DNA from: Escherichia phage CMSTMSU
Sequence record: MH494197.1
Strand: one strand, 5' to 3'
DNA: 64,000 bases
The first letter of the stretch is position 1. The number at the start of each line of letters is the position of its first letter. Below the pieces are notes generated by a model. It made no database searches, was not told where the DNA came from, and saw only the letters and a list, made by a program, of their open reading frames with translations. Position numbers and translations under genes: made by a program. Positions 12,320 through 16,517 of the stretch are shown here, one piece after another.

Positions 12320-13550
12320 TTAGAACATTTGCTTGATTGCTTCAATACGCAATTCAGCAACAAAATCACGAATCTCCGATGTTTGGAGTTCACCATCTTT
12401 CACTAACTGCTGAATATCAGGTAATTCAACATCAGTATAACGATCATAAACTTTAATAATCAAATCTTCAAGTTCAGAATCAATTTCTTTGTTCAAAATG
12501 AAGTTTTCCAGTACTTTGTAAAGGAAATCTTCACCACCATTGTTTTTGATATTCATATCCAGTAAGATTTGTCCCATTTCAACTGGGGTCTTCTTACGGA
12601 AGGTTTTAATATCTTCACGGAAACGCTTGATGTAATTACTAACTTCACGTACTTAACTGGAACCTTAATGGAACCGTTAAGTACTGAATCATTATTACTT
12701 CTTCATTTTCAAAGTACTGTCCATAAGAAATATGGTTTATATTCTTCTGTACAATTTACAGAGATAGAATCAATTAATTCCAGACGTTTCTTGGTAACTG
12801 GAACTGTAGTAAATGCCTTTTCGTAATAACCAAATTGTACCAGAGTTTTGATAAACTTGGAAGGGTTTTCTTCAGAAAGTGCTTTTCGAATTCAACAAAA
12901 CACGATCTGGAACTAGATGGTCTAGTTCACCAGTACTAACCATATCTTTACACATTGTCATAGTATCATCATGGATTGTAAAGTCGGAGAACGCGTAGCG
13001 AAACGGGCCAAACGTAGAACACGCAATGGATCTTCTTTAAAGTGTTCTGATACATGACGAAGTACTTTGTTCTTGATATCAGCTTTCCCGCCATAAGGGT
13101 CGATGTGAATCTGGAGTACTGGATCATATGCAATACTATTGATTGTGAGATCACGACGATATAGATCTTGTTCTAGTGTCACACCTTTTGTATTCACTTC
13201 GAAACCACCATATCCAGTACCAGTTTTACGCTCAGTACGGGCTAATGCGTGTTCATTACCTTCTGGACTTAGATATACAGGAAATCCTTACCTACTTGCT
13301 TGTATCCAATACTTTGCAAGTATTTAATATCGGATTCGGTAGCACCGACAATAACATAATCTTTGTCTTTTGCACGGATGCCCATTAAACGGTCACGAAC
13401 GTAGCCACCAACCAAATACTTTTTCATATCATTCCCCATCAACCAATCACGTAGACGTTCCCAGAAGCCTTTTGGCTGATATTCTGGATATTCATATTCA
13501 TCTGTTCCTTGCTCGGAAACACCCCAATCTTCTTCTAATACTGTAATCAC
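12320..13550 (-). CDS. tRNA nucleotidyltransferase (CCA-adding enzyme), frameshifted
   Basis: [15 protein letters not shown]...KDKDY head-domain motifs in 13269..13550; [13 protein letters not shown] and [11 protein letters not shown] in 12958..13197; C-terminal fragment 12320..12577. Confidence 0.7.
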
Positions 13551-13608
13551 AATGCCTCCAATTAAATTAATCTATCACGTAGACGGTCGTAATATTTTGC
13601 ATGTATAT

Positions 13609-13983
13609 CTAGTATACACTGAAATGACGGATAGTCAATACTAAATGTATCATCAATGAACATGTACTGATCAAGTGTTTCAGGACCATTATCATAAACT
13701 GGCAATGAACCTTCTTTTTTAACAGTGTGTTCCACATCAAATCACATGTAGTATCGAAAATTGCGTATGCTAATTCTATCTTACTTTTTCTAAGTGTAAT
13801 TAATAATTCATCATTCTCTACTAACGCGTTTCGTATTTTTACACGTACTGTACCCTGAAATTTATTAGTGGTTAGTACTCTATATTGATTATACGAAATC
13901 ATGCCTCGTATTTCAGTACTGATTTCTTGTTCAGAAAAGTACCTTAATGTACTGTGGAAATTTGGTATTTTACGAATGTCCAT
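13609..13983 (-). CDS. hypothetical protein, tandem paralog 2
   Basis: Shares N-terminal and, in an alternative frame, C-terminal sequence with adjacent ORF 13970..14380. Confidence 0.3.
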   Translation of the reverse strand: MDIRKIPNFHSTLRYFSEQEISTEIRGMISYNQYRVLTTNKFQGTVRVKIRNALVENDELLITLRKSKIELAYAIFDTTCDLMWNTLLKKKVHCQFMIMVLKHLISTCSLMIHLVLTIRHFSVY

Positions 13984-14380
13984 TCAAATTCCTTTCGTAT
14001 ATATGGTATACGTTCATTATACTATTATATAGTTCAAAGTCAAATCCAAATGTGTCATCAATGAACTGATATTGTAGATACTCTTCATATGAAGCATCAA
14101 TTGGTAATGAGCCAGAACGAATATCATCTGATTTAAAATCGTCAATATATCTTAATGTTATTTCTTCATCAACAGTGATATCTATCATCAACGTATCGTC
14201 ACTGTACCAAAGGTTATGTATACGGATGTAAAGTTTCTTAGCACGATTAAAACTAGATACATTGGTATTGCGATGGAGTTTATCTAAGTTGAAGTAAAAC
14301 CGGCTCGTTTTACTTATGTTTTTCATATGTTCTGCAATCGAATCAATTATATAATCAATGTTGAATGTTCTCATAAACAA
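13970..14380 (-). CDS. hypothetical protein, tandem paralog 1
   Basis: 136 aa ORF; GSLP..D..Y.QYQFIDDTF region similar to neighbour. Confidence 0.3.
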   Translation of the reverse strand: MFMRTFNIDYIIDSIAEHMKNISKTSRFYFNLDKLHRNTNVSSFNRAKKLYIRIHNLWYSDDTLMIDITVDEEITLRYIDDFKSDDIRSGSLPIDASYEEYLQYQFIDDTFGFDFELYNSIMNVYHIYERNLNGHS

Positions 14381-14481
14381 ATCTCATAGCGGTTTGTGTT
14401 TGGATTGTAGCAATAGGTATCATTAATTTTAACACCGGTTTAAGTGTTATTGTTGTTCCTACTTCAGTACTGGGTTCTGCA

Positions 14482-14679
14482 TCACAATAAATCATCACAC
14501 CAACGCCACAGATTAAAGCTAAGATACAAATAATAGCACATATTATATATTCCATCACTCCCCATCAGCCAATCAAAGAGACGTTCCAAGAAGCCATTAG
14601 GCTTGTATTCTGGTTCTTTGTTCACGTCGGTTTCTTGTTCATAAACACCCAAATCTTCTTCAAGTATAATTGTATTCAT
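14482..14679 (-). CDS. small acidic ORF carrying a 40 aa segment duplicated upstream of the CCA-adding enzyme
   Basis: MNTIILEEDLGVYEQETDVNKEPEYKPNGFLERLFDWLMG closely matches [39 protein letters not shown] at 13430..13550. Confidence 0.35.
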   Translation of the reverse strand: MNTIILEEDLGVYEQETDVNKEPEYKPNGFLERLFDWLMGSDGIYNMCYYLYLSFNLWRWCDDLL

Positions 14680-15062
14680 TATATATTATACTCTATTATA
14701 CCATCATCACTTTCACCAGACAACCACTTAATGTAATTTACTTTGTAGAAATTAATCAATGCATAAGTGCTGTACTCAATCAACAAGTGATCTCTCAAGA
14801 ATTCGTCTTGAGCATATCCATCTTCATCCAAATCTGTTGGAATATCAGTTTCTTTGTCTTGAATGTGTAAAGTTATTGTGTCTTTTGTTATACAAATTTT
14901 TATATGATTACAAATAGTAATGATGATTATGCTATATGTTCTATTGAAATATATTGTGAAATCTTCATTAATATTATATCTTCGACTTTCTTCATATTTC
15001 TGATATGGGTCGAAATGTGATAAATTAACTTTAATTAATGTATTTCTCAACTTACACCTCAA
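14679..15062 (-). CDS. hypothetical protein
   Basis: 127 aa ORF. Confidence 0.3.
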   Translation of the reverse strand: MRCKLRNTLIKVNLSHFDPYQKYEESRRYNINEDFTIYFNRTYSIIIITICNHIKICITKDTITLHIQDKETDIPTDLDEDGYAQDEFLRDHLLIEYSTYALINFYKVNYIKWLSGESDDGIIEYNI

Positions 15063-15575
15063 TCATATAAAGTAATTATACATTTTATTGTACAATATAA
15101 AAGGTCTTTCACATTATCATAAGTAATATCAGATATATCATGAATTAATGATAACTGAAAAATGAAGCTTCGTCTATCTCTACTGGGATTATAACATCAT
15201 AGTCTTCGTCAATTTTATGGGTGTAGTATTTTATGTGATCAGCATTCAACACAAGGTTGTATTTTGTATCATCTTCAATTAATCCGACAAATTGAGATTT
15301 TTGATTAATAAAAATCCAATCCCAACACAACGGTTATCTGGATATGGATAGTACCATCTATTAATAACTAGGTGTTCAGGTAAGTCCATATCATGTGTTG
15401 ATATTAAAGATTTTACAATTCCCATCCGAGAATAATTCATAATTAAAACTCCATAAGAAAAGGGACAGAATAATCTCTGTCCCTTTATTATATCTTACTC
15501 TTCGTCTTCAGTCAAGTCTTCTTGAACTGGATGTTCGGGTGTTACGGCGATGCAATTTGATGCTTTTGTCTTTAC

Positions 15576-15824
15576 CTAAGACAGTTTCCATTTTTCAAAT
15601 GAATCACCAATTGCTTTGTATAAATCTGCATCATCGGCGGTGACAATCTTACCACCTGATGTTAAAGTTACGGAATATTGATTCTTATGCTCTTTCTTCA
15701 CATGAACACCGATATAAAGTACTGAAGAATCACTAAATTTCGTTAGTACATTTGCTTCTGCATGAATCGCGTCATTGATTGCTGGAGTAATATCAACATT
15801 ACCTTGGATAACTAAATCTAGCAT
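15576..15824 (-). CDS. putative ribosome hibernation promoting factor (HPF/RaiA-like)
   Basis: MLDLVIQGNVDITPAINDAIHAEANVLTKF...VTLTSGGKIVTADDADLYKAIGDS follows the HPF pattern (L.ITG.N.EIT.AL...V..K..KL ... GG.I.A...DMY.AID). Confidence 0.4.
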   Translation of the reverse strand: MLDLVIQGNVDITPAINDAIHAEANVLTKFSDSSVLYIGVHVKKEHKNQYSVTLTSGGKIVTADDADLYKAIGDSFEKWKLS

Positions 15825-15839
15825 AATTTACCTACCTTT

Positions 15840-16457
15840 TTAGAGTGAGCTTAACAGCAAATCCGCTCTGTTTGTAACTTGGCGATACCACAAGGAATTC
15901 ATGATTTCTTTCTTGAACTTCTTAGGGTTATCCATTTTAACACTTTTCCAAAGTTTGTCAAATGTTGCCAACTTATCAACGCCCATTGTGTATGACATTT
16001 CAAACAGGATACGCTGCTGTTCTTTTGTCAGATTAACTGCATCTTTCTTCTGCATCAATAGTGTAAAGTCCTCGTAAGTCCTTTTCATATCTTGCATTAA
16101 AAGTTTGTTGGCCTGTGCTTTGGTAATCCCGTTTCTGTACTTCATTGCATCAGAATCTTTCTTACCCAAATAATGCCCATAACCAATTGTATAATTACCT
16201 TTCATGTCCTTATAGGGATGAAATTTAGAATTGTGGAAAGGAACTCCAACTTTCCCACCAAGTAATTTACGTTTGTTCTTGGACTGAAATTCAATAGAAC
16301 CTTCAGCTTCTTTGATGTGATCGACAATTTCTGGATCTTTATAATCAAACAGTACAGTCACATCTGGTAACAATACGTTCTTCAAATCCTCTTTTGTTGG
16401 GATAAAGATACCCTGAGAAGTATGAAGAGTTGCATTTAAGTTGATATTCTTCAACAA
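15840..16457 (-). CDS. T4-type lysozyme (glycoside hydrolase family 24) with about 100 aa N-terminal extension
   Basis: TIGYGHYL and SLWYRQVTNRADLL match T4 lysozyme TIGIGHLL and SRWYNQTPNRAKRV. Confidence 0.8.
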   Translation of the reverse strand: MLKNINLNATLHTSQGIFIPTKEDLKNVLLPDVTVLFDYKDPEIVDHIKEAEGSIEFQSKNKRKLLGGKVGVPFHNSKFHPYKDMKGNYTIGYGHYLGKKDSDAMKYRNGITKAQANKLLMQDMKRTYEDFTLLMQKKDAVNLTKEQQRILFEMSYTMGVDKLATFDKLWKSVKMDNPKKFKKEIMNSLWYRQVTNRADLLLSSL

Positions 16458-16517
16458 AATGACATAATCTTCAATCTGTACATTTTAGGTTTAAATTTCT
16501 GTGCAATAGAATAATAA

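Follow-up and report, generated by a model that had tools for sequence, protein, structure and literature searches.

Results

Two small ORFs upstream of the CCA-adding enzyme gene

The window analysed here is a stretch of 64,000 nucleotides (nt) from Escherichia phage CMSTMSU (sequence record MH494197.1), and the subject of this report is a short acidic open reading frame (ORF) that occurs in it twice, upstream of the gene for a CCA-adding enzyme. Gene structures were taken from error-free relatives and then mapped back onto the window. Copy 1 lies at 13550..13429 on the minus strand and, in the error-free relatives, encodes 40 amino acids (aa) from a GTG start at 13550. A GGAGG at 13555..13559 (minus strand), 4 nt 5' of the GTG, reads as its Shine-Dalgarno element and is kept in phage ph0011. 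The TGA stop of copy 1 is followed by 1 nt (T) and then by the ATG of the CCA-adding enzyme gene at 13427. Copy 2 (14679..14555, minus strand) encodes 41 aa, MNTIILEEDLGVYEQETDVNKEPEYKPNGFLERLFDWLMGE*, and overlaps both neighbouring genes: its ATG shares bases with the TAA stop of the upstream gene g278 (TAATG), and its TGA with the ATG of the membrane-protein gene TM61 (TGATG). Both copies are assigned to phrog_34272, and in the error-free relatives both are stand-alone genes that end in ...DWLMGE*.

That a 40-aa segment occurs twice had been noted in a preliminary description of this DNA, and the repeat is confirmed. BLASTP between the two window ORFs gave 25/38 identities (E=1e-15). The error-free copies are identical at 91/123 DNA positions (74%), with 9 synonymous and 15 non-synonymous codon differences, and a hidden Markov model (HMM) of the family found two matches in the six-frame translation of the window, copy 1 at E=3e-24 and copy 2 at E=6e-21. 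The HMM found no further copy in that translation, and the maximum was two per genome in 44 phage records. The positions first assigned, 13430-13550 and 14482-14679, had located the two copies, but their limits are corrected here, from the error-free relatives, to those given above. Nor is the resemblance a product of chance, shared by acidic segments that relatives fail to conserve: the small ORF is conserved in those 44 phage records.

Copy 1 has a net charge of ~-8 and a pI of 4.06, and it carries both motifs of its family, an N-terminal LEE(D)WGV and a C-terminal amphipathic (W/F)..(R/K)L..(W/F)L. Copy 2 conforms to these motifs in part, with Leu replacing the near-invariant W9 and the second Trp. 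It keeps the C-terminal ERLFDWLMGE together with the coupling to g278 and TM61.

Sequence errors in the source genome

The source phage belongs to the RaK2/121Q-like jumbo coliphages of the Asteriusvirus group; over 12150-14800 the window shares 99.3% identity with Escherichia phage fEgEco12 and 81% with 121Q. The CMSTMSU genome was obtained from MinION reads alone, with Albacore base-calling and Canu assembly (PMC6256653). Compared with fEgEco12 over 5.7 kb, the window has 36 indel columns, nearly all of them single-base homopolymer deletions, and 16 mismatches; about 15 single-base deletions against the same reference fall within 12150-14800. The CCA-enzyme gene contains 8 single-base indels, and the genes for the ribosome hibernation factor HPF, g277, the CCA enzyme, Nudix and glutaredoxin carry 3-8 frameshifts apiece. 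Between 10400 and 16600 most genes are fragmented by indels, and the same state of error is probable across the whole window. ORF-based readings of the window need a polished relative as a guide.

Near the 3' end of each small ORF lies a run of five G, and one G of each run is missing in the window (~13434-13438 in copy 1 and ~14560-14564 in copy 2). Because of this missing base, copy 1 seems to run on in frame into the CCA enzyme, and copy 2 takes the form of a 65-aa ORF (14482..14679). The fusion and the 65-aa form are both nanopore homopolymer artefacts, and recognising them as such avoids the mis-annotation of a leader-CCA fusion and of a longer second ORF.

A conserved small-protein family

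The repeated segment is a genuine small-protein gene of PHROG 34272, an already catalogued family whose function is uncharacterised and whose RefSeq example, 121Q gp538 (YP_009102125), is annotated 'hypothetical protein'. The PHROG profile matched both copies over their full length, copy 1 at E=3.2e-31 (1-40 of 40) and copy 2 at E=3.5e-16. The 44 records that contain the small ORF come from phages of Escherichia, Salmonella, Klebsiella, Erwinia and Xanthomonas. Clustering at 90% identity divides the family into 12 groups, and a search of 1.8 billion proteins gave 13 representatives at 50% identity. All members stand alone, at 38-76 aa, and are built in three parts: a near-invariant N-terminus that opens M-I-x, an acidic linker of ~15 to 50 residues, and a C-terminal amphipathic helix of the pattern (S)(W/F)(W/Y)(D/E)(R/K)L..(W/F)L. 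The small ORF had no match in Pfam, NCBIfam, PADLOC, PDB sequences or Rfam, no Rfam family was found in the window, and the sole match in a literature search for the motif 'EEDWGV' was an unrelated paper.

Selection on the small ORF was estimated from the ratio of non-synonymous to synonymous substitution rates (dN/dS). Between fEgEco12 and 121Q this ratio is 0.09 for copy 1, 0.10 for the CCA enzyme, 0.08 for Nudix, 0.09 for glutaredoxin and 0.25-0.38 for the neighbouring paralogs; other single-copy comparisons of the small ORF gave 0.04-0.15. The amino-acid motif persists between genera even where DNA identity in the small ORF falls to 55-60%, and the peptide is conserved from Met1. Since its dN/dS is on a par with that of the enzymes, the small ORF is maintained as a protein, and the substitution pattern indicates that the CCA-proximal copy is under strong purifying selection. 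The profile match, the low dN/dS and the conservation from Met1 bear out the earlier suggestion of a small protein family.

The distribution of the family appears narrow, since the sequences searched place it in RaK2-like jumbo phages only. RaK2, GAP32 and Eneladusvirus phages, Yersinia phage fHe-Yen9-04 among them, have the orthologous CCA gene and the paralogs, and no small ORF was detectable in them by HMM. Directly upstream of the orthologous CCA gene, GAP32_184/185 (L015:1907-2498), Yen9-04 g182 (L016:2124-2504) and L021:1615-1998 carry two motifs, (M/F)(D/E)EY(M/F)G(W/F)D and SFW..LI..DIL, that resemble the ends of the small ORF (MFEYDFGFD... and SFWxxLIxxDIL are examples); in one case these look-alike motifs make up the C-terminal third of a 126-aa protein. 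When GAP32_185 and the C-termini of GAP32_184 and Eneladusvirus g182 were compared with the small-ORF family, hhalign gave a probability of 5% (P=0.008 over 15 columns) and the HMM an E of 0.82. This similarity is not significant and does not support an extension of the family to the GAP32_185 and Eneladusvirus proteins.

Source and later history of the second copy

A genome normally contains a single intact copy, and two copies were found in 6/44 records (fEgEco12, EC.P1, Turkey3, Ecwhy_1, WPEC5 and ph0011). The locus occurs as type A, g277-TM61-g281-g282-small-CCA (121Q), as type C, g277-g278-small-TM61-CCA (JNE01 and L011), and as type B, the arrangement of the window, which is the union of A and C. 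Relative to type C phages, g278 is 94% identical, copy 2 is 90% identical and the first 72 nt of TM61 are 90% identical, with flanks at 70-80%. Relative to type A phages, the sequence from nt 73 of TM61 through the CCA gene is 96-100% identical, the 3' part of TM61 standing at 96%. The recombination breakpoint lies inside TM61 at ~14483. This mosaic of identities shows that the two-copy state arose by import of a cassette consisting of g278, a small ORF and the 5' half of TM61, with the crossover in TM61; the donor was a relative with a differently arranged locus. Tandem duplication as the source of copy 2 was rejected on the per-gene mosaic identities. Repeat-mediated deletion was likewise rejected as the origin of the locus variants, because the junctions use neither the two copies nor other short repeats and the crossover maps inside TM61.

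Variation at this place was also observed in other phages. WPEC3 (L019, reverse-complemented ~1930-2000, corresponding to window ~14483-14555) lacks g277, g278 and copy 2. The C-terminal half of its membrane-protein gene is the same but follows another N-terminal transmembrane segment (MNAVLIFLMCVVFGAFGLFVIL...), a junction that marks a second breakpoint, independent of the first, at this point of TM61. In vB_Ec-M-J (L020, reverse-complemented ~1900-1990) a 43-nt stretch (AAGACCTTTTTATATTGTACAATAAAATGTATAATTACTTTTT) at the 3' end of the g277 homolog is tandemly duplicated, exactly at the junction where the g278-small ORF cassette is present in some other phages and missing from the rest. On a metagenomic Asteriusvirus contig (L013:4128-4754) the place of TM61, between the small ORF and the CCA gene, is taken by a 208-aa ORF that matches the C-terminal half of the HNH endonuclease family phrog_953 (E=3e-66); this match suggests homing-endonuclease activity at the junction that could drive cassette exchange.

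Compared with its closest single-copy relative, copy 2 has 10 non-synonymous and 3 synonymous differences (dN/dS 0.71), and a Fisher test against the pooled single-copy pairs gave p=0.004. At least 7 of the 9 amino-acid changes are derived in copy 2, among them both conserved Trp residues changed to Leu. Copy 2 of ph0011 is interrupted by two in-frame stops (W10*, E14*), in a genome where copy 1 shows 100% conservation and TM61 is intact. Judged by these substitutions, the imported copy 2 is redundant, released from constraint and decaying, and is a pseudogene in ph0011. The idea of a recombination scar, also raised in the preliminary description, therefore fits copy 2, an apparently decaying by-product of cassette import, but not copy 1. 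We regard this account of the identity and evolutionary history of the small ORF as very probable.

Neighbouring genes and organisation of the locus

In the family as a whole the locus has the order lysozyme-(HPF)-one to four paralogs of 118-150 aa-small ORF-0-3 variable genes-CCA enzyme-Nudix-glutaredoxin. The same block was seen in ~20 independent loci, and every member with readable context lies inside it; loci of the XaC1 type are the exception, in that a 57-58-aa gene replaces the paralog upstream of the small ORF. The paralog directly ahead of the small ORF has 118-144 aa, and in most loci the start of the small ORF overlaps or abuts its stop (gaps of -23 to +11 nt). The gap to the CCA gene ranges from -4 to +1211 nt, the frame varies between loci, and all family members lie <=1.3 kb from the CCA gene wherever the contig extends that far. 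What follows the small ORF depends on the lineage: it may be the CCA enzyme gene, TM61, a paralog, a 57-aa ORF or the HNH endonuclease fragment. Stop/start overlaps or spacings of <15 nt are present on both sides of the small ORFs. This coupling is the generic packing of the operon and is not special to the small ORF, so that the dedicated translational-coupling module considered earlier, although the overlaps themselves exist, is not supported, the spacing and frame to the CCA gene being variable.

The CCA-adding enzyme (tRNA nucleotidyltransferase) is encoded at 12320..13427 on the minus strand, as are all the features that follow. It has 371 aa in fEgEco12 and is predicted by profile to be of class II, with matches to PF01743 (PolyA_pol, the Pol-beta head; 5.7e-19), PF12627 (PolyA_pol_RNAbd, the RNA-binding body; 2.1e-9) and phrog_2244 (1e-116). 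TM61 (14371..14555) encodes a 61-aa single-pass membrane protein of phrog_4189, and its stop overlaps the start of paralog g281 (ATGA). The gene for HPF/RaiA (S30AE), at 15495..15824, is the usual upstream boundary of the variable array. HPF was rejected as a co-occurring partner of the small ORF; L022 has the small ORF, and no HPF gene was called there.

Between HPF and g277, at 15459..15515, lies a promoter-like site (TTGACT-17-TATAAT, a consensus match only) followed by a hairpin with an 11-bp stem that is kept in fEgEco12 and WPEC3. The site is a possible operon start for both small ORFs; a promoter and terminator scan of the region gave counts not above the shuffled expectation. Site and hairpin together resemble the promoter/stem-loop cassettes at the borders of T4-type modules. 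We also observed that the block at ~10500-16500, together with L006, L008, L011 and L025, holds conserved helper genes of translation and RNA repair (thymidine kinase, 2H phosphoesterase, RNA ligase, lysozyme, HPF, CCA enzyme, NudE-type Nudix, glutaredoxin, YqeY/GatB-like and macro-domain genes), in an order that is presumably syntenic with the T4 tk-e-nudE region.

The two tandem genes reported between the copies are indeed paralogs, both of phrog_20693, but their extents had to be corrected to 14374..13970 and 13983..13562, and two further members lie upstream. Paralog g282 (13562..13983) encodes 140 aa (E=3e-51) and contains one frameshift error at ~13721; g281 (13970..14374) encodes 135 aa (E=6e-63). 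Upstream, g278 (14679..15050) encodes 123 aa and is absent from 121Q-type relatives, and g277 (15063..15440) encodes 126 aa of phrog_36582 and is hit by 3 indel errors in the window. When a local collection of 365 ORFs was searched iteratively, g277 and g278 joined the g281/g282 superfamily (50-140 bits), and by the same kind of search the genes that fill this interval in the Erwinia, Salmonella and Klebsiella relatives belong to it as well. The only well-conserved part of the paralogs is a C-terminal helical motif, EEEFFQ.S / Q(Y)MFIDDTF ... Y, in which Q106 is invariant in 16 sequences. AlphaFold predicted a confident alpha-beta6-alpha-alpha fold for g282 (pLDDT 80-96). The window carries four members of this fast-evolving alpha-beta6-alpha-alpha paralog family. 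The acidic p32/gC1qBP/Mam33 fold is a possible counterpart of these flanking paralogs.

Discussion

A conserved small-protein gene, an imported and decaying second copy, and a product that acts in trans make up what we consider the best explanation of the locus overall, and on balance a probable one. The small ORF would normally be translated by coupling to the paralog gene just upstream. Its product would act in trans because one copy suffices and the downstream gene is interchangeable, and the decay of a redundant copy argues for a trans-acting peptide over a cis-acting leader. Recombination has here set up a natural experiment, in which two copies of a tightly conserved 40-aa gene were brought together and one of them decays. 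The product would be an acidic binding peptide with two motifs, an adaptor or an inhibitor. One candidate partner would be the conserved C-terminal helices of the neighbouring paralog proteins, whose gene is coupled upstream; another would be a basic nucleic-acid-binding protein, either the CCA enzyme or a host tRNA-targeting factor. This mechanism and its putative partners are proposed tentatively. In an AlphaFold model of paralog g282 joined by a linker to copy 1, the C-terminal helix of the peptide reached a pLDDT of ~74, and the linker and the N-terminus of the peptide stayed <40.

Several observations weigh against this reading. The hint from the modelled paralog fusion is weak, with the N-terminal motif left unplaced, and a modelled fusion of the small ORF to the CCA enzyme (peptide pLDDT 26-53) was uninformative, since the head domain of the enzyme did not fold from 14 sequences. 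The selection statistics rest on 40 codons. Tested against the adjacent g278 alone, copy 2 does not differ significantly (p=0.30), and its ORF is intact, with identical amino acids, in five database phages and the window. Since the small ORF is not detectable by HMM in the RaK2, GAP32 and Eneladusvirus phages, and the peptide would be missing there, it is obligatory for neither candidate partner, the CCA enzyme or the paralogs.

Other explanations were weighed against the same evidence. The peptide could be a dedicated partner of the phage CCA-adding enzyme, as an activator, inhibitor or specificity factor. The small ORF directly adjoins the CCA gene in Asteriusvirus type A, Munch-like, XaC1-like and L028 loci, it never strays beyond the 1.3 kb mentioned above, and its acidic charge could mimic tRNA on a basic enzyme surface. 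However, one to three genes intervene in Erwinia-type and several metagenomic loci, RaK2, GAP32 and Yen9-04 have orthologous CCA genes and lack the small ORF, and the fusion model gave the peptide a pLDDT of 26-53, although its overall quality was poor; such a partnership is rather unlikely. It is unlikely too that copy 2 is a neofunctionalised paralog, for example with a new partner or working with the co-imported g278 and membrane protein. Its intact, identical ORF in six sequences would fit, as would the retained coupling and ERLFDWLMGE, but the five database phages are close kin (94-99% identity over the region) and copy 2 of the more distant ph0011 has its two stop codons. The substitutions, moreover, strike the near-invariant W9 and other conserved positions, and dN/dS is high. 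A cis-acting leader or upstream ORF, whose translation would serve ribosome delivery or regulation for the next gene (CCA or TM61) with the peptide irrelevant or acting within the ribosome, had been suggested in the preliminary description. It draws on the stop and start that lie 1 nt apart (copy 1/CCA) or overlap (copy 2/TM61) and on the last codons, ATGGGGGA(A/G)TGA, which at the same time form a Shine-Dalgarno-like sequence ahead of the next gene. This G-rich 3' end, however, is confined to Asteriusvirus rather than family-wide, and neither the downstream gene nor the gap and frame to the CCA gene is fixed across lineages. RNA structure at five junctions gave z of -0.95 to +0.56 against shuffled controls, none beyond chance, and the peptide itself is conserved from Met1 at a dN/dS like that of an enzyme. 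In ph0011 TM61 is intact behind a copy 2 that stops at codons 10 and 14, and the decay of one of two copies would be unexpected if each served its own downstream gene. We consider a leader quite improbable.

Two further readings deny the small ORF a protein gene of its own. In one, the repeat is a recombination linker or scar that provides DNA homology for module exchange and has no protein function. Insertions, deletions and cassette swaps concentrate at this locus, an HNH endonuclease fragment adjoins the small ORF in L013, and copy 2 is a relic of such an exchange; yet the mapped crossover lies inside TM61 and not in the small ORF, the indel junctions make no use of the repeat, and the amino-acid motif persists at 55-60% DNA identity with synonymous changes dominating in single-copy lineages. 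This is highly improbable for the repeat as a whole. In the other, the CCA enzyme would begin with the 40 residues as an N-terminal extension, made directly or through a programmed +1 frameshift at GGGGGAATGA. The window does read as one continuous frame, and the Shine-Dalgarno-like G-run just before the UGA stop of copy 1 recalls what is presumably a similar arrangement at the prfB frameshift site. That frame hangs on one missing homopolymer G in a MinION/Albacore/Canu draft in which indel columns outnumber mismatches as described. The stop is present in 35/35 Asteriusvirus relatives, it varies between TGA and TAA, the offset to the CCA gene is 1, 2 or 11 nt or a 4-nt overlap, and re-pairing from GAA to AAU would be poor. 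Neither stop type nor frame offset being conserved, extension and programmed frameshift were rejected as effectively refuted.

On the preferred reading of a trans-acting small protein, a broader role can be imagined, to which we give little probability: the peptide may be a conserved, trans-acting member of a system by which jumbo phages protect tRNA and translation, serving as an acidic tether with two motifs. Such a tether would recruit the fast-evolving p32-like paralogs or block a host tRNA-targeting defence nuclease. Products of the surrounding genes, namely the CCA enzyme, RNA ligase, 2H phosphoesterase, Nudix and macro-domain proteins, would work alongside it. In such a system the arms race would be fought by the paralog array, and the peptide would stay constant. 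A constant peptide within a diversifying paralog array, beside genes of tRNA repair and ribosome hibernation, is a reasonable candidate for work on the defence of translation in giant phages. At present the importance of the finding is modest, as the family is already catalogued and its distribution narrow; it is real but fairly ordinary.

Comparison with known systems

The closest known counterparts are the members of PHROG 34272, 121Q gp538 and its orthologs, with which the window copies share position, length, motifs and a full-length profile match; copy 2 has lost both Trp residues of the consensus and differs from it at several other conserved positions as well. In kind, the small ORF resembles the 'monkey-wrench' proteins, small acidic phage proteins that bind nucleic-acid-binding proteins, such as T7 Gp2, Gp5.9 and Ocr and, in the conflict between PrrC and tRNA, T4 Stp. 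It is likewise small, strongly acidic, aromatic-rich, encoded in the early region and non-enzymatic, and it lies beside RNA-repair genes much as Stp is tied to the anticodon-nuclease conflict. The resemblance is one in kind only, as there is no similarity of sequence or structure (no PDB, Pfam, NCBIfam or PADLOC match).

TnaC, SecM and attenuator leaders are regulatory leader peptides or coupled upstream ORFs. The small ORF is similarly short, lies immediately 5' of an enzyme gene and has abutting stop and start codons. It differs from them in its variable downstream gene, in the lack of an alternative RNA structure and in the disrupted copy that leaves the next gene intact, and its conservation peaks at the N-terminus and not at a C-terminal stall site.

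The hyperplastic regions of T4-type phages are shaped by modular cassette shuffling, promoter/stem-loop (PeSL) cassettes and homing-endonuclease co-conversion. The interval between HPF and the CCA gene is in the same way a mosaic of presence/absence cassettes swapped between related phages, with a promoter-like site and hairpin at its upstream edge and an HNH fragment in one variant. In contrast to the PeSL cassettes, the crossover found here lies within a coding gene, TM61, and the repeated element is a protein gene and not an intergenic regulatory cassette.

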